DNA of 50,791 bases from a virus. The position numbers were made by a program, and so were the translations under genes. Shown in pieces: positions 4,089-28,771 of this stretch (positions are counted from its first letter, which is position 1; every line of letters starts with the position of its first letter). The notes under the pieces were generated by a model. It worked only from the letters and a program-made list of their open reading frames with translations. It was not told the origin of the DNA and did no database searches. The stretch is taken from UHGV virus genome UHGV-0205652, one strand, 5' to 3'.

Positions 4089-5030
4089 ATGGCAAATGAA
4101 TTAGTCGTAATTGAACAAGCAACAGCGCTAGATTTATTTACAGCACCAGAAAAAGTAAATCAGATGCTAGAGCACATTAAATCTCTTGCAGAAGAAGAGC
4201 GTAAAGAACTCGACAGTGATTTCTCAGTAGCTAAAAACCGAAAGGCTTTTGCATCTCTGGCGTACAAAGTTGCTCAAACAAAAACGTATATCGACAAGGA
4301 AGGTAAAGCAGTTGTCGATAAGTTAAAAGAGCTACCTAAAAAAGTTGATGCTAATCGCAAGATATTTCGTGATGAACTAGATGCATTAAGCACAGATATT
4401 CGCAAGCCACTAACAGAGTGGGAAGCACAAGAAAAAGCTCGCGAAGAAGCTGAGGCGCTTAAGAAGCAAATCGAAGTTGATCACGAAGAAGCTCTGCAAA
4501 TGAACGAGTTGTTTGATTTGCGCAAAGCCGAAGAGGAACGCAAACGCATTGCTCGTGAAGAAGAAATGAAGCGACAAGCTGCGGAACAGGCAAGACTTGA
4601 AGCTGAGCGCAAAGCACAGCAAGAAATTGAAGCAGCAGCACGGCGCGAACGTGAAGCAAAAGAAGCTGCCGAACGTGCAGAGCGTGAAAAGCAGGAAGCT
4701 ATTCAACGTGCAGAGCAAGCGGCAAAAGAAGCTAAGGAAAAGGCAGAACGTGATGCTAAAGAAGCTCAGGAACGAGCCGAACGTGAAAAGCAATTAGCTA
4801 TCGAAGCTGAGCGTAAGAAAGTACAGGAAGCAGAACAAGCGCGATTAGCAGAGGAAGAACGTAAGCGTCAGGAAGAAGCTAAACGTCAGGCTGATAAGGA
4901 ACATCGTCGCAAGTATAACCAAGAAACATTACAGGCGTTAGTCAGTAACGGATTTGATGAAAAATTAGCAACTGAATTTATTAAGTTAGTAGCTAGTAAT
5001 AAAATCCCCCACATGACAATGAACTACTAA
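4089..5030 (+). CDS. Early protein: structured N-terminal domain followed by an approximately 140-aa E/R/K-rich single alpha-helix or coiled-coil segment with internal repeats (AERAEREKQ.AI)
   Basis: Low-complexity periodic ERK composition seen in the translation, with repeated 27-nt units near 4672-4700 and 4768-4800. Several antisense ORFs in the track are artefacts of this repeat. Confidence 0.7.
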   Translation: MANELVVIEQATALDLFTAPEKVNQMLEHIKSLAEEERKELDSDFSVAKNRKAFASLAYKVAQTKTYIDKEGKAVVDKLKELPKKVDANRKIFRDELDALSTDIRKPLTEWEAQEKAREEAEALKKQIEVDHEEALQMNELFDLRKAEEERKRIAREEEMKRQAAEQARLEAERKAQQEIEAAARREREAKEAAERAEREKQEAIQRAEQAAKEAKEKAERDAKEAQERAEREKQLAIEAERKKVQEAEQARLAEEERKRQEEAKRQADKEHRRKYNQETLQALVSNGFDEKLATEFIKLVASNKIPHMTMNY

Positions 5031-5085
5031 TACCCACCTCACCAACACCAGATAACCACCCTATCGCTCACCTAGCGAGGTAACA

Positions 5086-5261
5086 ATGAAAACTAACTAT
5101 TACAGCGCTATGCGTGATTGCATGGCGGTGCGTATCACTACGCCTTTTTTACAACTCGCACGTCAAGCGGCAAGGATAGCCGTCTCGACTAATAACAAGG
5201 ATGTCTGGCGGCTGGCGAGTCAACTACAGAAGATGGCTTACGGGAGGAAAATATGTCACTG
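5086..5261 (+). CDS. Small hypothetical ORF (58 aa)
   Basis: ATG at 5086. Weak SD. Overlaps the next gene start. Confidence 0.25.
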
Positions 5262-5528
5262 ACTATACGTTACACCTATGCAGATATGACCAGTAGAAAC
5301 CGAAATAATGGCACGGAAATAGCTTTTCAGAATCTTAACGATGTCCGAATTGAAACAGAATCATTCAGGGAACTTACTCAATATTACCAACCTGAGCCAT
5401 CAGAAGTCGTTGATTACGTCGTTAATCAGTATGACGCAAAGTCACTCGCAGCAGCTATTCATCTCTCAGGACGAGGGGAAGTAGTCGCAAAGATACTCAA
5501 TGAGTTGTATTTCAGGAGGGTTGCGTGA
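5253..5528 (+). CDS. Hypothetical protein (91 aa)
   Basis: SD GGGAGGAAAATATG. Confidence 0.55.
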   Translation: MSLTIRYTYADMTSRNRNNGTEIAFQNLNDVRIETESFRELTQYYQPEPSEVVDYVVNQYDAKSLAAAIHLSGRGEVVAKILNELYFRRVA

Positions 5529-5677
5529 CACAGCATCAACAATGGTTAGAAGAATTACGCAGGAAGCGTAAAGAATCGCAGGAGCGCGAACACGATGAAT
5601 TTATGTATCAAACGGAAGTGTTAGGACGACAAGGACTGTCGATACCAACAAAGGACTTTGCAGGAGATTTTCAATGA
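5525..5677 (+). CDS. Small hypothetical protein (50 aa, GTG start, translationally coupled at both ends)
   Basis: GGAGGG then 4 nt then GTG. The stop overlaps the next ATG (ATGA). Confidence 0.4.
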   Translation: MTQHQQWLEELRRKRKESQEREHDEFMYQTEVLGRQGLSIPTKDFAGDFQ

Positions 5678-5994
5678 ACGTTTCTAACTCATACCCTACC
5701 GATAAATACCCTCGCCTAACATCACCGTCATTAGCAAAAAACAGAGAGGAAGCTCTGGCTCAAGCTATTGCAATGATTGAGGGGCATTTGCCGAATACGA
5801 GTGTGAAGGAGAGAGAAAAGCGACTTGCAATGGAACTGCTACACATGAACTTGGACGCATCGAAAAATCACCCTCCTATTCCTCCACATATTCAAGCATT
5901 ACGTGATGCAGAAAGGAATTCTGTATCTGGGAATAAGGTTGAAATCGATTACTACGGAAGCGATCGACGTTCTGGTCAGTATTTGGGGGATTAA
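5674..5994 (+). CDS. Hypothetical protein (106 aa)
   Basis: ORF coupled to the upstream gene. Confidence 0.6.
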   Translation: MNVSNSYPTDKYPRLTSPSLAKNREEALAQAIAMIEGHLPNTSVKEREKRLAMELLHMNLDASKNHPPIPPHIQALRDAERNSVSGNKVEIDYYGSDRRSGQYLGD

Positions 5995-5995
5995 T

Positions 5996-6673
5996 ATGAC
6001 ATATCGAGTAGTAGATACAGAGACTTGTGATTTTGACAGCGGAATAGTTGAGATTGCAAGCATTGACATAAACAACAATGAAATCGATTACACATCTCAG
6101 AAGTCACACTTTGTAAACCCACAGAAACCAATCTCAATAAGCGCTATGGCTATTCATCACATCACTGATGAAATGGTTGCCAACTCTCCGCTCATTGATG
6201 ACGTTATAGGTAATTACAAGGGTTCTGATTATCTGGTTGCACATAATGCCGAATTCGATAAGCGAATGATGCCGGAAATGGATGTTCCGTTTATTTGTAC
6301 GTTAAAGCTGGCAAGACGCTTATATCCAGAGTTAGAAAGCCACAGCAATCAATATCTACGTTACGCGCTAAAGCTGAAAGTTCATGTGCCAGATGGATTA
6401 CACGCACACAGAGCGCTATATGACTGCATTGTTACAGCGTCATTATTTAAACGAATCAAGGATGATTCAGGGTGGTCGGACAAGGAAATGTTAGAAATAA
6501 CAAGTCAGCCATCACTATTAAATAAGTTGCGTTTCGGTAAGTACAAAGGAATGACATTTACCGAAGTTAAGAAAGAAAACGCTGGGTATTTAACTTGGTT
6601 GCTAGGTCAGCCTGATTTAGATCCAGATGTTGAGTTTTCAATTAAATACTGGATGGAGAAAAGAGATGAGTGA
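5996..6673 (+). CDS. DnaQ-like 3'-5' exonuclease (DEDDh family)
   Basis: Motifs 'VVDTETCDF' (Exo I), 'HNAEFDKRM' (Exo II) and 'HRALYDC' (Exo III). The start is taken at ATG 5996 (SD GGGGGA), not the longer 5903 ORF. Confidence 0.8.
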   Translation: MTYRVVDTETCDFDSGIVEIASIDINNNEIDYTSQKSHFVNPQKPISISAMAIHHITDEMVANSPLIDDVIGNYKGSDYLVAHNAEFDKRMMPEMDVPFICTLKLARRLYPELESHSNQYLRYALKLKVHVPDGLHAHRALYDCIVTASLFKRIKDDSGWSDKEMLEITSQPSLLNKLRFGKYKGMTFTEVKKENAGYLTWLLGQPDLDPDVEFSIKYWMEKRDE

Positions 6674-7283
6674 AGTATACAAGGCAATAAGTAATGTTGC
6701 TAAGGAGTTGGCTGAAAAAGGCATTAGTAAGGAAAAGCCCAGGGGAGGTGGCGTAAATTATGCGTTTAGGGGTATTGATGCGGTTTATAACGCCCTAGCC
6801 CCTGCATTAGTTAGGCACGGATTACTTATTTTAACTCGCTGTACTGAGCGTTCTGTATGCGAGAGAACCAGCAAGAGCGGAGGTGTATTAAATTATGTCA
6901 CTGTTAAGGCTGAATTTGACTTTGTGTCTGTCACGGATGGCAGTAAACACACAGTCATGACATATGGCGAGGCTATGGATAGCGGAGATAAAGCCACAAA
7001 TAAAGCCATGTCGATTGCATATAAATACGCTGCATTTCAAGCGTTCTGTATTCCAACAGAAGAAACAGCAATTGATGCAGATGCGGAAATTCATAACGTA
7101 GCACCACGAACGGCAGATCAGATATTGGCTGATTACACTAACTTTCTTGGTACAGCTACGAACCAATCACAAATCATGGATGAGTACAAAAAAGCATGGA
7201 ATGCATTGTCTGGCACTGAATCACAAAAGGAATGTGAGCGTTTAACAGGAATTCGGATTAAAGAACTTAAGGAAGTAGCATAA
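6666..7283 (+). CDS. erf: Erf-family single-strand annealing protein
   Basis: '[25 protein letters not shown]' is typical of the ERF superfamily. It lies adjacent to the exonuclease and SSB genes, forming a recombination module. Confidence 0.8.
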
Positions 7284-7792
7284 TGGCAAGTAAAGGCGTG
7301 AATAAATGTATTCTCATTGGTCACTTGGGGCAGGATCCAGAAATCCGTTATATGCCATCAGGTGGCGCAGTAGCAAATCTCACACTGGCCACATCGGAAT
7401 CGTGGCGTGATAAACAAACCGGTGAGATGAAAGAAAAAACCGAGTGGCATCGAGTGTGCATCTTCGGCAAATTAGCAGAAATTGCAGGTGAATATCTGAG
7501 AAAAGGAAGTCAGGTGTATATCGAGGGTTCTCTTCAAACTCGTAAATGGCAAGATCAGAACGGTCAAGACAGATACACAACGGAAGTAGTGGTTAATGTT
7601 GGCGGAACAATGCAGATGCTGGGCGGTAACGGTGGTAATCAGGCAGGGAGCCAACAACCAGCGCGACAACCTCAGCAGTCACAGCAAAGGCAACCAGCTC
7701 AGCAAAATGAGCCACCTCAAGATTGGGATGAACCAATACCTTTCGCCCCTATCGGACTCCCCTACCCACGCCACGCTATTTATGTGATTTAA
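7283..7792 (+). CDS. ssb: Single-stranded DNA-binding protein (SSB) with an unusual 15-aa extension after the conserved IPF tip
   Basis: Near-identical N-terminal OB fold to E. coli SSB ('[35 protein letters not shown]'). The C-terminus reads '...[23 protein letters not shown]' instead of ending at IPF. Confidence 0.9.
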
Positions 7793-10462: not shown

Positions 10463-10654
10463 ATGACTAACTCAGATTTAATTGTAGAAAAGGATGTTTA
10501 CGAATGGATCGGCGTTAAACGTACCGCATTGTGGCGTTTAAAGAAAGAGTGTGGATTCCCTAAGCCAGTCCTGTCTAGACCAGCAAAATATAAAAAATCA
10601 GCGATACAGCAGTGGATAGATAACGGTGGAATTAACCAGAAGCCAGCTTCTTAA
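10463..10654 (+). CDS. xis: AlpA-family excisionase/transcriptional regulator
   Basis: 'VYEWIGVKRTALWRLKKECGFPKP' is a typical AlpA HTH. Start set at the ATG with SD AGGAG, not the long 10235 ORF. The 3' end overlaps the int 3' end. Confidence 0.75.
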   Translation: MTNSDLIVEKDVYEWIGVKRTALWRLKKECGFPKPVLSRPAKYKKSAIQQWIDNGGINQKPAS

Positions 10655-11807
10655 CATGCCAGAATATTTTATCTGCATACATCTCATAAGCGCTTCTCTG
10701 ATCATCTATCCAATCATGTTTATTGTAAACAGCCATTACCCCGCCAAGTTCATGCCCCAGCATCTTTTCTGTCACATGGGGCATCACGCCTTCACTAGAT
10801 AGGTTCGTCACAATAGAACGTCTAAAGTCATGTGTACGCCACTCAGGAATATCAATTGATTTTCTAAGCTTATTCATGAATTTATTAGCTGACGACCTAT
10901 CTATCGCTTTATCTATCTCCTGTCCGGCAAATAAAATCTCATTACCGTTATTTAGTAACCTTTCTATATATGGCTCGACCTGTTTGAATATTGGGCGCCT
11001 AATAATATTACCCATTTTTGAGTGCTCTCTTGGCGTTGTCCAGATCATATCTTCCATGTTGAATTCAGAGGCGTTTGCCATCCTCATCTCAGAAAGACGA
11101 GAACCATACAGCATTAGCATCTGATGAAGCAGTTTATTGGAAGTGACTATTTTACAGTTTTCCAAAGCAAGCCAGATTTTAGCGAGTTCTGTGTACGTAA
11201 GAACTCGATCGCCAATATCGGGACGCTTACCAATAGTTTTAGGGCTTAACTTAAGTACTTCGCAAGATGAAATAAATTGACGACTAATACACCAGTTAAT
11301 AACAGATCTGAGTTGCATTAAAAGCACCCTAGCCTTCTTTGGGTTTGTTTTTTCTTGTTTATCGAAAAATTTAACCCACGATGAAATGGGTACATCAGCA
11401 ACAGGAGTATTTGAAAATTGTGTGTACATCGTGTTGTACACGATCGACTTATATAATGTCTTGGTGTTCGGTTTTAGCTGTGACGCATATTTATCCCACC
11501 AGTAATCTAGGCAATCTTTTAATGACGCCTCGGTCTCACCTTTTGAAAAATATATTTTGGGGTCAATCCCTTTAGTGTACAATTCACGCATATTTCCAAT
11601 AATGACCCTAGCCTCTTTTAGGGATATCGCTGGATAGTGGCCGACAGTCAACCTGACAGCCTTACCATTCCAGCGATATCTATATTGAAATGCTATTGTT
11701 CCGTTAGGGGATATGCGAGCGCTAAGGCCGTCACCATCGGTTAACTCTGGTTTTCCTGAGTATGGTTTATTAAAAAGGCTTCTTAGTTTGGTGTCGCTTA
11801 ATGCCAT
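10632..11807 (-). CDS. int: Tyrosine integrase, P4-like family (arm-binding N-terminal domain plus catalytic core)
   Basis: N-terminal 'LSDTKLRSL...GDGLSARISPNGTIAFQYRYR' and C-terminal R...HxxR...Y pattern ('THDFRRS', 'LGHELGGVMAVY'). Confidence 0.9.
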   Translation of the reverse strand: MALSDTKLRSLFNKPYSGKPELTDGDGLSARISPNGTIAFQYRYRWNGKAVRLTVGHYPAISLKEARVIIGNMRELYTKGIDPKIYFSKGETEASLKDCLDYWWDKYASQLKPNTKTLYKSIVYNTMYTQFSNTPVADVPISSWVKFFDKQEKTNPKKARVLLMQLRSVINWCISRQFISSCEVLKLSPKTIGKRPDIGDRVLTYTELAKIWLALENCKIVTSNKLLHQMLMLYGSRLSEMRMANASEFNMEDMIWTTPREHSKMGNIIRRPIFKQVEPYIERLLNNGNEILFAGQEIDKAIDRSSANKFMNKLRKSIDIPEWRTHDFRRSIVTNLSSEGVMPHVTEKMLGHELGGVMAVYNKHDWIDDQRSAYEMYADKIFWHVKKLASG

Positions 11808-19925: not shown

Positions 19926-20027
19926 ATATCAGGATATTAATAAATATCCATTAGGTTATTTTATATATTCAGCCCAGAGAAACTTGCCGAAGGAATGGCT
20001 GATTTACTTCGGTGTGAGGGAATAAAA

Positions 20028-20324
20028 ATGAGTAATAAATTTTTAGATCCACTAAAACCATCTCACGAACAACTTGATATTGCCATACCTAAATTACTAG
20101 ATGCAAAATCAGTTCTTGATGAGGTGTTACCTTTTTACATTGCCTTTACAGCAAAAACATCCAAAGACCCAGAAGCTTTTTACCCATTAATAATGAAATG
20201 CTTAGAGGCTATTTTTGGGGTTGATAAAACCAAAAGAAATATAAAAGATAACGAGATAGCAGACTACGCCTACTCATTGGAAATGAAATCAAAACAAATT
20301 TTCGATAAGATAAAAGATATTTAA
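20028..20324 (+). CDS. Hypothetical protein (98 aa; track ORF from 19995) in reverse orientation inside the tail operon (moron)
   Basis: SD GAGGGA before MSNKF. AT-rich. Flanked by terminators. Confidence 0.55.
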   Translation: MSNKFLDPLKPSHEQLDIAIPKLLDAKSVLDEVLPFYIAFTAKTSKDPEAFYPLIMKCLEAIFGVDKTKRNIKDNEIADYAYSLEMKSKQIFDKIKDI

Positions 20325-20335
20325 CCATAAAAATA

Positions 20336-20372
20336 AAGCGTAACAATGTCAATTTTGTTGCGCTTTTACCAT
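20336..20372. terminator. Bidirectional hairpin terminator between the convergent ORFs 20028-20324 and 20349-20627
   Basis: AAAGCGTAACAA...TTGTTGCGCTTTT with A- and T-runs on both sides. Confidence 0.4.
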
Positions 20373-20627
20373 TGTATGAAAATAATTTCGAGCATATTCC
20401 TCCGCTCTGCCAAAAAAGTGCTTTAACCCCTCATCAGGATTAAAATCTTCTTCATATCGCAATGTCAGGCTAGAATTATCATCATCAGATAAAATCTTAG
20501 TAATAACAACTTTTGATTCCAAGGTGGCTACAGTTCCCGTGGAAAAATTTAAGCTACCTTTAAATTCTTCAATAGCGCCATCTGTGAATCTAAATGACTT
20601 AATTGGAAATCCAACTTCAATTTTCAT
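20349..20627 (-). CDS. Hypothetical protein (92 aa) between the tape measure protein and gpM; not present in the lambda layout
   Basis: ORF directly after the TMP stop. Confidence 0.5.
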   Translation of the reverse strand: MKIEVGFPIKSFRFTDGAIEEFKGSLNFSTGTVATLESKVVITKILSDDDNSSLTLRYEEDFNPDEGLKHFFGRAEEYARNYFHTMVKAQQN

Positions 20628-23798: not shown

Positions 23799-23809
23799 TT
23801 TAAGTCTCC

Positions 23810-23840
23810 TAAAAAAGAAAACCCTGCCAAAATGACAGGG
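23810..23840 (-). terminator. Rho-independent terminator closing the cargo island, just upstream of the TMP RBS
   Basis: The reverse complement reads CCCTGTCATTTTGGCAGGG + TTTTCTTTTTT. Confidence 0.5.
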
Positions 23841-23925
23841 TCTTATGCACAAAGGTATTAACTTGTATTTGTAGATGTTTGATAATCACAAAATAAAAAC
23901 ATTATTAGTTCTATTGCAAAGAGAA

Positions 23926-24282
23926 TTATCTCCTTTTTAAAATCTCTCTTATCTTTTCATGGTTTGTACCTTGCGGTGCTTGCTTATTATTCACATCACT
24001 ATCTTTTTTTGCTTTATTTTTTTCAGCTAGCTCAGTTAGGTATTTAGAGTTATCAAGAGAACCAAGTATGTGACTAGTATTCCTATCAATCGCTTCAACA
24101 ATGAAACCACACCCTGTAAATATAGCTCCTATCAATGCAATAAGGAGTGAAAGAGAGACATATGCCATTCCCTCTGCTGGGTTAAATTTATCGAAGTAAC
24201 TTGTTCCTGTAGTAGATGTCACATAGAAACCAAACACAACGCTTAATATTAATATAACGATGCCAACATACTTTAATCTCAC
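23926..24282 (-). CDS. Small membrane protein (2 TM helices, GTG start); last gene of the cargo cassette
   Basis: 'VGIVILILSVVFGFYV' and 'YVSLSLLIALIGAIFTGCGFIV'. Confidence 0.55.
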   Translation of the reverse strand: MRLKYVGIVILILSVVFGFYVTSTTGTSYFDKFNPAEGMAYVSLSLLIALIGAIFTGCGFIVEAIDRNTSHILGSLDNSKYLTELAEKNKAKKDSDVNNKQAPQGTNHEKIREILKRR

Positions 24283-24375
24283 AACACCATCCTCGTTAGT
24301 TAATTTGTTATTAGTTTAGCTGTTTGTGGTGCAAATGGGAGCAAACAAAAAACCTGCCGAAGCATGTTTATAGAA

Positions 24376-25044
24376 TTATGATACCAATTCTGATGAGAAC
24401 AATCTTTCTAAAAACTTTTTATTTATTAAATATTCTATATTTTCATTTAGATATAAAAATGAATACTTTATGTCTTCTTTATTATTAATTAGCAAAAAAT
24501 TATCTAGTGACGACTGCACTGAAACGAGGTCATTACATAGATTTCTGCTTTTTTTCTTTTCAAAAATCTTGGATGAATCAATGTATTTATAGCTTTTTGA
24601 TACATCAATATCAGCCTTGACATTGTTATGAACGTAATTACATGCATCAGAATATACCCTAGTAAGTGCGCTAACACCGTCTACACCTTTATATCTTTCT
24701 TTAAACTCACTGAACATCCTTGTAACACCGATCTCATCATCATTATCTTTGTTCAACAAGAATCTAATTGAATTTTCAATGCATGACCTTATATTAAAAT
24801 AAAAGTATCTATCTTCATTTTTTTTTATTGCTGAAATACAACCTAAAAAATCATAGATGACGCTTAATAAGTGTCTATTACCTCTCAAAGATTTTTCGTG
24901 AATTATCTTCAAAAAAATAGACTTTTTTACCGCTGATATTAACGAGTCAACAACATATTGGTCAGGAATTACTTTTAGGTCTTCTTTGAACTTGGACACT
25001 GTTCCCAACACGTTGTAAGGGTCAATAGTAAGGAAGTTACTCAC
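24376..25044 (-). CDS. Uncharacterised alpha-helical protein (222 aa), cassette gene 3
   Basis: No recognisable motif. The start overlaps the upstream gene stop by 8 nt. Very AT-rich. Confidence 0.65.
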   Translation of the reverse strand: MSNFLTIDPYNVLGTVSKFKEDLKVIPDQYVVDSLISAVKKSIFLKIIHEKSLRGNRHLLSVIYDFLGCISAIKKNEDRYFYFNIRSCIENSIRFLLNKDNDDEIGVTRMFSEFKERYKGVDGVSALTRVYSDACNYVHNNVKADIDVSKSYKYIDSSKIFEKKKSRNLCNDLVSVQSSLDNFLLINNKEDIKYSFLYLNENIEYLINKKFLERLFSSELVS

Positions 25045-25456
25045 CCCTAAACCCCTTTATCCACTTTGAGATACTTTCTGTTGTAGTATTTTTACCTTTT
25101 CTCTTTTTATTTTCTTTCTTTTTCGCTTCTAAAGCGATATCGTTGATTGGCAGCTGATCTAGCTTTTCATAAATGATATTGACAACAGTATTTTTAGCTG
25201 TGAAATGATTTCCATCAGAATATTTTCTAACTATATCTTTCGCAAGCCTAGAGAACATAAGGGTTCTTGAGGATACAACGTATCTTTTATATTCTATCTT
25301 AAATGCATCTTTAATAAATTCACTCAATTCAAAATTCGACTTAAAAATTTCTTTGGAAAATATTACTAAAGATAGAAACCCGATCATAAACTCAAGCGAT
25401 TCAGAATCTTTTAGTTCCATTAATTTCTTTTTAGTTATTAATTTATTCTGATTCAT
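25037..25456 (-). CDS. Uncharacterised protein (about 139 aa) with a C-terminal Lys-rich tail, cassette gene 2
   Basis: Start placed at the MNQNK ATG with SD AAAGAGG. The track ORF extends upstream into the ParA gene. Confidence 0.55.
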   Translation of the reverse strand: MNQNKLITKKKLMELKDSESLEFMIGFLSLVIFSKEIFKSNFELSEFIKDAFKIEYKRYVVSSRTLMFSRLAKDIVRKYSDGNHFTAKNTVVNIIYEKLDQLPINDIALEAKKKENKKRKGKNTTTESISKWIKGFRGE

Positions 25457-26294
25457 CATCAACCTCTTTAAGCTTAGCCTCGAGTTCCGTACATATTCTA
25501 TCAATGATTTCTTTAGACTGAGAATACGCTGACGCAAAATTTAATTGCTGACCAACCTGTAAATCCCTAACCTTTGAAAAATGATTCTTGAAGAAATATA
25601 GATCCCTGATTCCTTTTTCGGTTTCTATAGCCGTCTTAATTGCTCTGGTCTTCTTGGTCAATCTTTTTGGTGCAGTATCGGTATAAATAACACCCAACGG
25701 CTTTATTGTAAGTCTTTGATCTCTAGCCAGCTTAGAAACAATTGATAGCAAATTGTTACTCCCTAATACTGAATACTGATCTATTCTCATTGGCATTATA
25801 TAATGTGTAGATGCCATTATGGACGCTTCGGTATACATCGAAATGGTAGGCGGACAATCAATAAAAATATAGTCGTAGATTTCTCTTAACTTATTGTCTT
25901 CAATGAAATTTCTTATCCTAATCAATCTAATTGTATCTACCGTGTTATGCTCAAACATTATGTTTATATCACCAGGGATTATATCTAGATTTGGATATAC
26001 ACTGTAAATAACATCTTCTTTTTTTAATACTGCATCTTCATCATATATAGAAGCATTTACTTCAAATATTCTCTTGATTGTCTTTCTTTGTTTTACTAAA
26101 GATAAGTACTCACTTATTTTATCATGCTTACCCATAAAAGATTGTGTTGCATTAAACTGAGGATCAATATCTATTATTAATACTTTTTTATCCTTATAGT
26201 TTGCTAAATACTCACCAATACTAATACATAGAGTGGTCTTTCCCACCCCACCCTTCATATTAATAAAGCTAATTACAGGCGCATTCATGTGCAA
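25443..26294 (-). CDS. ParA/MinD/Soj-family P-loop ATPase (small type-Ib-like, no N-terminal HTH)
   Basis: Deviant Walker A 'KGGVGKTT', then 'IIDIDPQFN' and 'IFIDCPP'. Confidence 0.85.
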   Translation of the reverse strand: MHMNAPVISFINMKGGVGKTTLCISIGEYLANYKDKKVLIIDIDPQFNATQSFMGKHDKISEYLSLVKQRKTIKRIFEVNASIYDEDAVLKKEDVIYSVYPNLDIIPGDINIMFEHNTVDTIRLIRIRNFIEDNKLREIYDYIFIDCPPTISMYTEASIMASTHYIMPMRIDQYSVLGSNNLLSIVSKLARDQRLTIKPLGVIYTDTAPKRLTKKTRAIKTAIETEKGIRDLYFFKNHFSKVRDLQVGQQLNFASAYSQSKEIIDRICTELEAKLKEVDDESE

Positions 26295-26388
26295 GCTCCA
26301 AAGAAAATATCAAAATATATTACAGGCACTAAAAAATTTTACATTCCTGTTTTTTATACAGTAACAACAAAATAAAATGTGATATTAG

Positions 26389-26646
26389 TCACTTTTTACC
26401 CTCATTCATTTTCTTGATAGTTTCCATGAACAGTTCTTTGAACTTTTCAGGATCAAGCTGTGACAACTCATTTAAGTTTTTATGGGTGCTATCCTCATCC
26501 ACTGCAGACTGAAGAATCATAACCATTTCAGCATTAAGAGATCGCCCATTCTTACTTGCCCTTTGCATTAACTTTTCCTTCAGAGTATCAGGCATTCTAA
26601 GGCTATAAGGCGTTATATCTCTTATTCTCGTATTTTTTTGTGACAT
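26389..26646 (-). CDS. mnt: Mnt-like ribbon-helix-helix repressor
   Basis: 'YSLRMPDTLKEKLMQRASKNGRSLNAEMVMILQSAV' aligns with the recalled P22 Mnt 'FNFRMPMEVREKLKFRAEANGRSMNSELLQIVQDAL'. Divergent from arc-ant. Confidence 0.8.
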   Translation of the reverse strand: MSQKNTRIRDITPYSLRMPDTLKEKLMQRASKNGRSLNAEMVMILQSAVDEDSTHKNLNELSQLDPEKFKELFMETIKKMNEGKK

Positions 26647-26759
26647 ACAACCACCAGTAAAGTCATTGTGATATCACAATATAGTCAATTATTCGTTGAC
26701 TATATAGATTCACATTGATATCTTTGTGATGTCACATAGACACATAAAAGGATGAAGAT
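26647..26759. promoter_or_regulatory. Divergent promoter/operator region: perfect 14-bp palindrome TTGTGATATCACAA (26666-26679), a 24-bp palindrome ATAGTCAA-N8-TTGACTAT (26681-26704) and the imperfect TGTGATGTCACA (26725-26736)
   Basis: Palindromes read directly from the sequence. The arrangement parallels the Mnt and Arc operators of P22 immI. Confidence 0.5.
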
Positions 26760-26921
26760 ATGAATACCAATAAAAAAACAGGAAAATTTCAACTCAGATT
26801 AACAGAGGTGTTAAAAAGTAAAGTGGTAGAACTCTCAGCGAAAGATGGTATTTCGCAAAACTCAATAGTTAATCAAGCGATAGCTTGGTATGTGAAAGAA
26901 AGAGAAAAACGTGTCAACTAA
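26760..26921 (+). CDS. arc: Arc-like ribbon-helix-helix repressor, 53 aa (MNTNKKTGKFQLRLTEVLKSKVVELSAKDGISQNSIVNQAIAWYVKEREKRVN)
   Basis: Translated by hand; below the track cutoff. It has the beta-strand 'FQLRL' then two helices, like P22 Arc, and lies directly upstream of ant. Confidence 0.7.
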   Translation: MNTNKKTGKFQLRLTEVLKSKVVELSAKDGISQNSIVNQAIAWYVKEREKRVN

Positions 26922-26990
26922 AACAGCGAAGCCCCAACTATTTGCGGTAGCTAGGGCTTCTAATTTGTCAGAAACTACGGAGTAACCGAC

Positions 26991-27824
26991 ATGACTAGTG
27001 TATCAACAATTAACGTACCTTTCCACGGTAACAACCTGTATGTAGTAAATTTCAACGGCGAACCATATGTACCAATGAAGCCAATAGTTGAAGGCATGGG
27101 GTTAACTTGGCAATCTCAATTTGAAAAGCTAAAACAAAGGTTTAGTAAAGGGATCACGGAAATCGTGATACCTTCAAAAGGCGGTGAGCAATCAATGCTT
27201 TGCCTAGCTCTCCGTAAACTTGCAGGCTGGCTTCACACTATCAGCCCTAACAAAGTCAAACCAGAGATCCGCGATAAAGTAATCAAGTATCAAGAAGAGT
27301 GTGACGACGTACTTTATGAATATTGGACTACTGGTGAAGTTAAGAAAAAACACAAATCAACTGTTCAAGAACGCAACCCATTAAAGAATGCTGTTAATCT
27401 ACTGGTTAGTAAGAAAGGCATTATGTACCCAGAAGCCTATTCTCTTGTTCACCAGAAATTTAATGTTAGTAGCATTGAAGAGCTAACAGCAGATCAGATA
27501 CCCGATGCGGTTGAGTATATTCACAAGTTCGTTCTTGAAGGTGAATACATTCCTAAACAGGAAGAAAATATACTTTTTGAGCCAAATCAAAACTCAATCA
27601 CTGTAACCATACCCAAAGAAGGCAGATGGTTAGTTTCTTATAAAAATGGAAAGCAACAAGTAGTTAGCGTTGATGGTCATAACGTTGTCAGTGTTGAATA
27701 CATTCAAAAATTACAACGTGACTCTAATGCTCTTATTGAGTTACTGCAAAACTTCCGCTTACGCACCCAAGTTATGCAAGGTGAGAAAAGCGGAGATATT
27801 TTAAACACTCCGTTAATTGCATAA
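26991..27824 (+). CDS. ant: Antirepressor (P22 Ant-like N-terminal domain plus C-terminal domain)
   Basis: N-terminal 'INVPFHGNNLYVVNFNGEPYVPMKPIVEGMGLTWQSQ' is a typical AntA/P22_AR N-terminal domain. Follows arc. Confidence 0.8.
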   Translation: MTSVSTINVPFHGNNLYVVNFNGEPYVPMKPIVEGMGLTWQSQFEKLKQRFSKGITEIVIPSKGGEQSMLCLALRKLAGWLHTISPNKVKPEIRDKVIKYQEECDDVLYEYWTTGEVKKKHKSTVQERNPLKNAVNLLVSKKGIMYPEAYSLVHQKFNVSSIEELTADQIPDAVEYIHKFVLEGEYIPKQEENILFEPNQNSITVTIPKEGRWLVSYKNGKQQVVSVDGHNVVSVEYIQKLQRDSNALIELLQNFRLRTQVMQGEKSGDILNTPLIA

Positions 27825-27880: not shown

Positions 27881-27945
27881 CAAAGCAAAAAGCCTCAGTT
27901 AAGAGGCGTGGTGAAATTTGGGCAACAAAAAACCCACCGGAGTGG
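27881..27945 (-). terminator. Two tandem - strand terminators (GCCTCTTAACTGAGGC+T5; CCCACTCCGGTGGG+T6) after the DUF3800 gene
   Basis: Hairpins and T-runs read on the reverse complement. On the + strand the same structures follow ant. Confidence 0.5.
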
Positions 27946-27946
27946 G

Positions 27947-28771
27947 TTAGTTGAATTTATTTAAGAGCTCAGTCAGCTTTTGAGTCGACGCTGGTCTGTC
28001 TATGTTATTCCTGACATTACTTCGCTTCTGCGCTCTGGCTATTCGGTCACCAAAATATTGTTTAAATAATATATATTCTGGCTTACTCTCAGGCTCAACA
28101 TCAAAGTAAGATATCTTTCCATACAGTGCACAAAGCCAATCTGCACATTGAATAGTCTGATACAATTTACTGTCTACCTGAACAGGTGCTTCCAGCAGCT
28201 GATACTTATCGCATTGATGCATTTCATATATCGAACGCTTTACAATTTCTTTTCTTATCTCATGGTCATCCATAAAAATAAGAAACTGAGCGTCTTGGCC
28301 CTTGAATTCATCATCAAGCCTTTTAATAACTTCTTTTAGACTGGATTTGTATACGCCTTGAGGATTGTGCTTCTCTATTCCCCTTTTTTTAGCTTCTCCA
28401 ACATAAAACAAAAAACCACCCATCTTGGTTATATTGTTTATAATTCGTCCAGTGCTGCCAATCAGAAAGCTTTTATAATTTTTTAAGTTGGCTACAGAAT
28501 ACTGTTTTGACCCTTTCTTTTCCCAGTTAGACAGTTGAAATTTTCCACCAGCCTCTTCTTCTTTCTTCCTTGCGGCAGGAATCTCATATTTACCAAAAAG
28601 ATTTTGTTTTAACTTAAAGAAGAAATGAGAGAAGTCTCGAACTCTATTAGCAGGAATTACAAACCCACCTAGTCCGAATACTGGGTGAGTGTTATGAAGC
28701 TCATGATCATGTGATATGAATGGACCGTCATGGCCAAATTCATCTAGATATACTATGTATAACTGAGACAT
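27947..28771 (-). CDS. DUF3800-family protein (predicted RNase H-like fold)
   Basis: N-terminal 'LYIVYLDEFGHDG' matches the Y.D.SG signature recalled for DUF3800. Own promoter and double terminator. Confidence 0.65.
   Translation of the reverse strand: MSQLYIVYLDEFGHDGPFISHDHELHNTHPVFGLGGFVIPANRVRDFSHFFFKLKQNLFGKYEIPAARKKEEEAGGKFQLSNWEKKGSKQYSVANLKNYKSFLIGSTGRIINNITKMGGFLFYVGEAKKRGIEKHNPQGVYKSSLKEVIKRLDDEFKGQDAQFLIFMDDHEIRKEIVKRSIYEMHQCDKYQLLEAPVQVDSKLYQTIQCADWLCALYGKISYFDVEPESKPEYILFKQYFGDRIARAQKRSNVRNNIDRPASTQKLTELLNKFN

Follow-up and report, generated by a model that had tools for sequence, protein, structure and literature searches.

The virus genome UHGV-0205652, a stretch of 50,791 nucleotides referred to throughout as the window, carries a minus-strand cassette of three genes whose closest described relatives lie in the prophage Gifsy-1 of S. 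Typhimurium 14028. In that strain, a strain-specific three-gene region adjoins the repressor gene gfoR, is constitutively expressed in the lysogen, and consists of STM14_3218 (ParA-like, 840 bp), STM14_3219 (309 bp) and STM14_3220 (663 bp) (Kurasz et al. 2023, PMC9879122). The region is needed for the SOS/prophage-induction-dependent activation of RtcR and the Rtc RNA-repair operon, and the RtcR-activating signal is RNA ending in a 2',3'-cyclic phosphate (PMC9879122). In Sargen et al. 2026 (PMC13043305), STM14_3218-3220 are named remAIN and presented as an anti-phage system of an ATPase, an immunity protein (RemI) and a HEPN nuclease (RemN), with anticodon nuclease activity ascribed to RemN and with protection by Salmonella RemAIN against ES18 and other external phages; the same paper cites Sargen & Helaine (Cell Host Microbe 2024) for RemAIN. 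According to PMC12626290, Gifsy-1 blocks the lytic cycle of the co-resident prophage ST64B via the tRNA-cleaving product of remN. Furthermore, a ParA/Soj-HEPN dyad had been predicted computationally to act as a toxin-antitoxin pair, with the ATPase as antitoxin and the HEPN protein as toxin (Anantharaman et al. 2013, PMC3710099). The comparisons reported here indicate that positions 24376-26288 on the minus strand of the window very probably hold a module of the RemAIN family, which a Proteus-type prophage carries for lysogenic conversion.

Four minus-strand open reading frames (ORFs) are present in this region (26288/26294-25443, 25459-25037, 25044-24376 and 24282-23926). The original prediction had grouped them as four tightly coupled genes forming a candidate new exclusion or defence system. 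The genes lie where they had been placed and the first three do overlap, by 17 nt (remA/remI) and 8 nt (remI/remN); the fourth, however, begins 93 nt past the end of remN, has its own Shine-Dalgarno sequence (GAGGA), and falls outside the block shared with related prophages. The three genes of the module, with product lengths in amino acids (aa), are as follows:

25443..26288, minus strand: remA homologue, encoding a ParA/Soj-type deviant Walker A ATPase (281 aa; ATG at 26288 with GGAG ahead)
25037..25459, minus strand: remI homologue, encoding a predicted helical protein with a basic linker and the conserved C-terminal peptide KNTTTESISKWIKGFRGE (139/140 aa; ATGATG at 25459/25456)
24376..25044, minus strand: remN homologue, encoding a HEPN-fold putative anticodon RNase (222 aa; GTG start at 25044)

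The Gifsy-1 genes were located via primers from the supplement of PMC9879122, one of which matched exactly in IMG/VR and led to eight loci. In one of these, L053, six published primers match exactly, the spacing of the gene ends fits the 840 bp of STM14_3218 and the 663 bp of STM14_3220, and the flank is 99.6% identical to Gifsy-1; RemA is encoded there at 4170-5009, the RemI ORF at 4996-5388, and RemN at 5388-6050. The window ATPase is 49% identical to Gifsy-1 RemA/STM14_3218 over 277 aa (E 9e-94), and KGGVGKT, DxDPQ and D-x-PP are conserved in both proteins. The 139-aa protein aligns with the Gifsy-1 RemI ORF at 32% identity over 57 aa (BLASTP, E 3e-10; family hidden Markov model (HMM), 5.4e-12), a match that is weak but specific; the window and Salmonella proteins share an invariant G, N, Y and SR(T) as well as a C-terminal W. 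The 222-aa protein is 30% identical to Gifsy-1 RemN over 155 aa (E 5e-17; family HMM, 1.3e-45), and the motifs RS.IE[NH]..R and Y...C.YVH occur in both. Because all three proteins are homologous to the products of STM14_3218-3220 and are encoded in the same order, the window cassette is, by sequence homology, a gene-for-gene counterpart of RemAIN. What had been proposed as a candidate new defence system is thus borne out as a prophage defence/exclusion cassette beside mnt, but not as a new kind of system; by the same homology, its novelty is that of a Proteus-type member of the recently described RemAIN.

The assignment of the first gene to the ParA family agrees with what had been read from its motifs (KGGVGKTT, DIDPQ, IDCPP). 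The protein contains NMKGGVGKTT, with signature lysine K12 and Walker A K17, followed by IDIDPQ and IDCPP; it matches Pfam AAA_31 (7.8e-36) and phrog_164 (1.5e-51), and its nearest solved relative is H. pylori Soj (1.5e-18). The only match in PADLOC (2023) was to the P-loop of this ATPase (PDC-M28B, residues 4-44, E 1.9e-05). For its two partners, no family in Pfam, NCBIfam or PADLOC matches either the 139-aa or the 222-aa protein, and PHROGs places both in families of 'unknown function'. The earlier statement that the partners lack a recognisable domain therefore holds for these family collections, but not at the level of structure, since the 222-aa protein has the four-helix HEPN fold. The HEPN assignment was reached through fold comparison only, which named 4nqf, 1ufb and 1wol as well as Csx1, Csm6, the AbiA HEPN domain, HEPN toxins and LsoA as relatives; a HEPN family profile gave no significant match against the sequences of the PDB.

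To define the RemN family, an exhaustive profile search was performed, yielding 104 clusters at 50% identity with nearly all members at about 220 aa, and residue conservation was read from an alignment of 73 of these clusters. Three residues (R86, E90 and H139) do not vary at all, and five more (K40, D65, S87, R94 and Y131) hardly vary, giving the signature R-S-x-[ILV]-E-[NH]-x-x-R ... Y-x3-C-x-[YF]-[VI]-H-[SGN]-N, in which R86, E90 and R94 sit on a helix earlier than H139. None of the 73 members, nor Salmonella RemN, matches any Pfam family (E<=1 or 0.01). The family is spread over Morganellaceae, Enterobacteriaceae, Pasteurellaceae, Streptococcus, Bacillus, Clostridium and Lachnospiraceae, and is linked to RemA and RemI wherever the gene context is readable. 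In the RemI family, G26, N41, Y59, S63 and R64 are invariant. Moreover, the last 18 residues of the window RemI homologue (KNTTTESISKWIKGFRGE, encoded at 25037-25090) are near-invariant among proteins that are otherwise 49-96% identical, and this conservation extends well past the 8-nt overlap with remN; it points to a docking peptide at the C-terminus of RemI, whose partner may be the ParA-like ATPase.

Loci with all three genes were collected via relatives of the 222-aa protein, and their neighbourhoods were then read. The order ATPase, small protein and 222-aa-type protein is kept in all 14 independent lineages examined, which belong to Proteobacteria and Firmicutes, and every complete locus encodes the ATPase, then a protein of 113-144 aa, then one of 215-231 aa, with gene ends that overlap or abut. 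The hosts include Proteus, Morganella, Xenorhabdus, Pasteurella, Streptococcus, Johnsonella and Salmonella, along with several unassigned viral or metagenome contigs, and the triad also occurs in several lambdoid and other viral contigs; a Buttiauxella contig breaks off within the middle gene. A megablast search of the cassette against phage records returned no match. The degenerate pattern RYFY...RS.IEN, searched for in DNA, found extra triads but missed that of Salmonella, because RemN there has RYLH...IEH.

The surroundings of these triads differ. In eleven Proteus prophage loci, identity to the window is 97-99.5% between about 27851/27962, in ant, and 24278-24330, and all resemblance is lost beyond. 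The Morganella copy, which is homologous over 26430-24388 at 83.6% with the leader included, lies in an E217-like myovirus prophage between tape measure and baseplate genes. The Xenorhabdus triad adjoins aspS, Pasteurella canis carries a triad as well, and that of Streptococcus phage Javan1 lies between the repressor and integrase genes. In six lineages, namely Gifsy-1, L025, L009, L029, L038 and Javan1, the triad immediately follows a prophage repressor gene and runs in the same direction; the repressor is of the HTH_3/CI type in Gifsy-1, carries HTH_3 and S24 in L025 (a rexAB-like slot), S24 in L009 and L029, and HTH_3 in L038. In L024 the triad belongs to the lysogeny module and has an ImmA-like protease gene on one side and the integrase gene on the other. 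Taken together, these data demonstrate that the triad is a conserved mobile unit, usually located directly downstream of a prophage repressor gene.

Two of these neighbourhoods hold further genes. In a Johnsonella metagenome-assembled genome (L011 566-5099), the neighbours of the triad are an ImmA/IrrE protease, an HSDR_N protein and a restriction-endonuclease-like protein (DUF3644 + EC042_2821), a setting that is defence-island-like. In L024 (3377-4627), a RelE/ParE-type toxin-antitoxin-like pair of short ORFs, judged by eye from the translations, lies with the ImmA-like protease gene between the repressor gene and the triad.

The composition of the unit and its distribution also bear on the alternative offered in the original prediction, a type Ib-like partition cassette in which ParA, aided by a small basic protein that binds a centromere, would segregate the phage in an extrachromosomal form. 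The ATPase is genuinely of the Soj/ParA type, the middle protein has a Lys-rich tail, and annotators call such genes 'partitioning'. However, fold comparison found no ParB/ParG-like partner (a ribbon-helix-helix (RHH) or helix-turn-helix (HTH) centromere-binding protein) in the cassette, and positions 23800-27000 contain no iterated repeat array that could serve as a centromere, only two-copy, low-identity chance repeats. The obligatory, always-linked third gene encodes a HEPN nuclease, and the unit moves between differing integrated prophages, the window phage itself having an integrase gene at 10632-11807, as had been pointed out before. In Salmonella, Gifsy-1 has no ParB homologue and the deletion phenotype is not a plasmid copy-number or segregation effect (PMC9879122). 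A partition function is accordingly considered highly improbable, and the reading of the cassette as a RemAIN-family module is retained.

Several points weigh against that reading. The window RemI and RemN are only about 30% identical to the prototype, and PADLOC 2023, whose library is older than RemAIN, has no model that confirms the call. The canonical HEPN motif Rx4-6H is absent from the RemN family, no Arg being conserved 4-6 residues before H139 in the 73-cluster alignment; because this motif is missing, R86, E90 and H139 can only be put forward as putative catalytic residues. tRNA anticodon cleavage and phage protection by the window cassette are carried over by analogy from the Salmonella prototype. 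In addition, co-transcription of the cassette with mnt is argued solely from the lack of a predicted terminator or strong promoter between them.

The analogy with Salmonella also matters for a second alternative, namely that the cassette serves purely for addiction, as a toxin-antitoxin module that plays no part against viruses, in which a HEPN toxin and an antitoxin formed by the ATPase and/or the small protein stabilise the prophage. Such an arrangement is what PMC3710099 postulated for ParA/Soj antitoxins and HEPN toxins, RemI is termed an immunity protein in PMC13043305, and the gene overlaps are as tight as those of toxin-antitoxin operons. The Salmonella homologue, however, is described in PMC13043305 and PMC12626290 as protecting against ES18 and other phages and as blocking a competitor prophage, and the window cassette occupies a position typical of morons and defence genes. 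Toxin-antitoxin-like architecture and defence can coexist, and an addiction function to the exclusion of defence is judged improbable beside the RemAIN reading.

The remaining features of the region, from upstream to downstream of the cassette, are as follows:

26389..26646, minus strand: Mnt-like RHH repressor gene (Pfam Arc, 2.6e-09), co-directional with and directly upstream of the cassette; context, not a RemAIN component, but a likely origin of transcripts that enter the cassette in the lysogen
26289..26388, minus strand: leader from the mnt stop to the remA start, with GTGAC-N4-ATCAC (26379-26392) and CTGT-N7-ACAG (26347-26361)
24283..24375, minus strand: 3' untranslated end of the conserved cassette, with a weak hairpin and a U-run; the homology breakpoints lie here
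23926..24282, minus strand: gene for a 118-aa protein with two predicted transmembrane (2-TM) segments (GTG start at 24282); apparently an orphan moron outside RemAIN
23818..23844, minus strand: intrinsic terminator with a 12-bp stem containing 5 GC pairs, then CTTTTTT

As had been noticed by eye, the insert is AT-rich: the GC content is 0.305 over the three genes and 0.343 over the whole 5.3-kb insert, whereas the window as a whole has 0.400 and the tape measure gene 0.415. The terminator that had been placed after the 2-TM gene was recovered at 23844-23818, with its stem and T-run, and the ATG of the tape measure gene (23798) is just past it. The weak hairpin after remN (24283-24375) was not called a terminator by the scan and was not recovered by folding.

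The 118-aa protein has two hydrophobic segments, seen as two Kyte-Doolittle peaks. No homologue was found in any other triad locus, in phage records or in IMG/VR, and BLASTP gave no alignment with P22 SieA, so that its likeness to SieA is positional only. It could nevertheless be the membrane effector of a four-component system built on the ParA module, given that its gene is on the same strand, that no terminator is called between the third and fourth genes, and that a single terminator follows the fourth. Against this proposal, the gene is missing from every other triad locus, including the 11 Proteus prophages that are 97-99.5% identical through the first three genes and whose shared block ends at 24278-24330; the protein is without homologues, and the prototype has three genes. 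Conservation as a unit across genomes thus holds for the first three genes, in all 14 lineages, but does not extend to the 2-TM gene, and a four-component system is very hard to credit. These patterns instead support the view that the 118-aa protein, which possibly acts at the envelope, is an independent orphan moron in a hypervariable slot, unrelated to RemAIN.

In sister Proteus prophages, the slot between the cassette breakpoint and the tape measure gene holds different lipoprotein-like, signal-peptide or transmembrane proteins of 77-289 aa, one kind or another per lineage. The remN-tape measure slot, of roughly 0.4 kb, looks like a moron hotspot for envelope-acting proteins. The hypervariable stretch of the window (23853-24330) was compared with L006 and L012-L022 at about 6670-7700.

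Other cargo lies nearby. A 274-aa DUF3800 protein (Pfam, 6.1e-17) is encoded at 27947-28771 on the minus strand, between ant and the tail genes; it corresponds to phrog_26069 (5.5e-130), listed with function unknown, and is further cargo of unknown role in the same 5.3-kb insert. Terminator-like hairpins flank the DUF3800 gene on both sides, one of them bidirectional (27931-27948). A second AT-rich pocket (GC 0.32-0.35) occurs at 19995-20627, just past the tape measure gene, and contains a plus-strand ORF of 109 aa (19995-20324) and a minus-strand ORF of 92 aa (20349-20627), both of which are possibly further morons inside the tail module.

The mnt-like gene upstream of the cassette faces a divergent Arc-like gene and an Ant antirepressor gene, and its product is 36% identical to P22 Mnt. 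In P22, mnt is followed on its own strand by orf59a and sieA, and the analogy that had been drawn between the cassette position and the sieA slot is therefore sound. Outside the Proteus block, no Mnt-like gene is found upstream of the triad, and other lineages have an HTH/S24 repressor in that place. RefSeq labels P22 Mnt (NC_002371, L056 4020-4271) as 'partition protein ATPase', and the same label is attached to phrog_2685 and phrog_795, which are Arc/Mnt-like RHH families; the label is an annotation error that could, next to a ParA-like gene, falsely suggest a ParA-ParB pair.

No terminator and no strong sigma-70 promoter were predicted in the 100-nt gap between mnt and remA, and read-through from Pmnt into the cassette is therefore plausible. 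A weak promoter of the cassette's own may also reside in the leader, since homology with the Morganella phage takes in the leader (to 26430) along with the cassette. The leader RNA folds no better than shuffled sequences. The near-palindrome GTGATATTAGTCAC (26378-26392) had been taken to resemble an Mnt operator half-site, with control of the cassette by Mnt as the consequence. This suggestion was not upheld: the P22 operator Omnt is AGGTCCACGGTGGACC, which is unrelated to GTGATATTAGTCAC, and operator-like palindromes of the window itself occur only in the mnt-arc gap. These are two TGTGAYATCACA palindromes at 26667-26678 and 26725-26736, a motif with 6 strand-matches in the window against 0.47 expected, and they are likely to be the Mnt/Arc operators of the immI region, unrelated to those of P22. 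The site at 26379-26392 has one half in common with them and a different spacing; for GTGA-N6-TCAC, the window has 3 occurrences where 0.5 would be expected.

The leader also contains a perfect CTGT-N7-ACAG palindrome (TACTGTATAAAAAACAGGA, 26347-26361) that is identical in the Morganella copy. A LexA box at this position was rejected, because the site is one base short of CTGT-N8-ACAG, and no site in the window comes within 3 mismatches of the LexA consensus. A search for an upstream motif common to distant triad loci found none. A broader scenario, in which RemAIN of the Proteus/Morganella clade would be wired into immI rather than immC, the two leader palindromes would bind a regulator of their own by which the nuclease is tuned at induction, and the 2-TM protein would be a new SieA-like exclusion factor, is speculative when its parts are taken jointly and is regarded as unlikely.

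The arrangement of the locus and the prototype literature are compatible with the following course of events. In the lysogen, transcription of the cassette would accompany or closely follow that of mnt, the tail genes on either side being silent, and RemI would hold RemN inactive. Replication of a competing phage or prophage would lead RemA to release or activate RemN in an ATP-dependent step, whereupon RemN, presumably using R86, E90 and H139, would cut tRNA anticodon loops, so that translation and phage production would stop. The terminator at 23844-23818 would end lysogenic transcription ahead of the tape measure gene.

Altogether, these analyses name a cassette that had no functional annotation and assign it a function open to testing; its two partner proteins are of unknown function in PHROGs and without a model in Pfam, and PADLOC 2023 does not detect the system. 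They also show that the RemAIN architecture is not confined to Salmonella. They join three strands of literature, namely the ParA/Soj-HEPN dyad of 2013, the Rtc activation of 2023 and the defence system of 2024, and they offer mutagenesis definite targets in the family-invariant residues of RemN and RemI and in the non-canonical HEPN motif. For specialists this extends known biology and brings no surprise; the interest that remains lies in how widely the family is distributed, in a HEPN motif that departs from the canonical one, and in the immI-linked context with its adjoining variable slot.

When set beside Gifsy-1 RemAIN, the window cassette matches it in having three genes, in their order and in their overlapping ends, and the products are of similar size (281, 139 and 222 aa, as against 279, 102-130 and 220 aa in Gifsy-1). 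It is likewise AT-rich relative to its host phage (0.305 here; 0.34 there, in a 0.47 locus) and likewise prophage-borne, and in both cases a lysogeny repressor gene of the same orientation immediately precedes the triad. It differs in sequence, with identities of 49/32/30% and a longer RemI that has a clade-specific conserved C-terminal peptide, and in its location, which is an immI-like (mnt-arc-ant) block inserted in the tail module of a Proteus-type siphovirus, not beside the immC repressor. The dyad of 2013 (MAE_18760 family) similarly places a ParA/Soj ATPase gene and a stand-alone HEPN gene on mobile DNA; however, it is a dyad, whereas the present unit is a triad with an obligatory middle gene, and membership of RemN among the MAE_18760/DUF4145-type HEPN proteins is not supported, with no Pfam HEPN or DUF match among the 73 members aligned. 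Similar to lambda cI-rexA-rexB and P22 mnt-orf59a-sieA, in which exclusion or abortive-infection genes that are expressed in the lysogen lie just downstream of the maintenance repressor gene, the cassette follows its repressor gene; dissimilar from Rex and SieA, which are membrane-based and have no kinship to it in sequence or fold, RemAIN is a cytoplasmic ATPase-regulated RNase. Finally, HepS, PrrC, RloC and other HEPN anticodon nucleases share with it a HEPN-fold effector, and the RemN prototype, too, is reported to act against viruses by cleaving tRNA anticodons. HepS, however, consists of a single protein whose R-x4-H motif is canonical, and in PrrC and RloC an ABC-type ATPase is fused to the HEPN domain, whereas the window encodes a separate ParA-type ATPase, an immunity protein, and a RemN whose HEPN motif is non-canonical.

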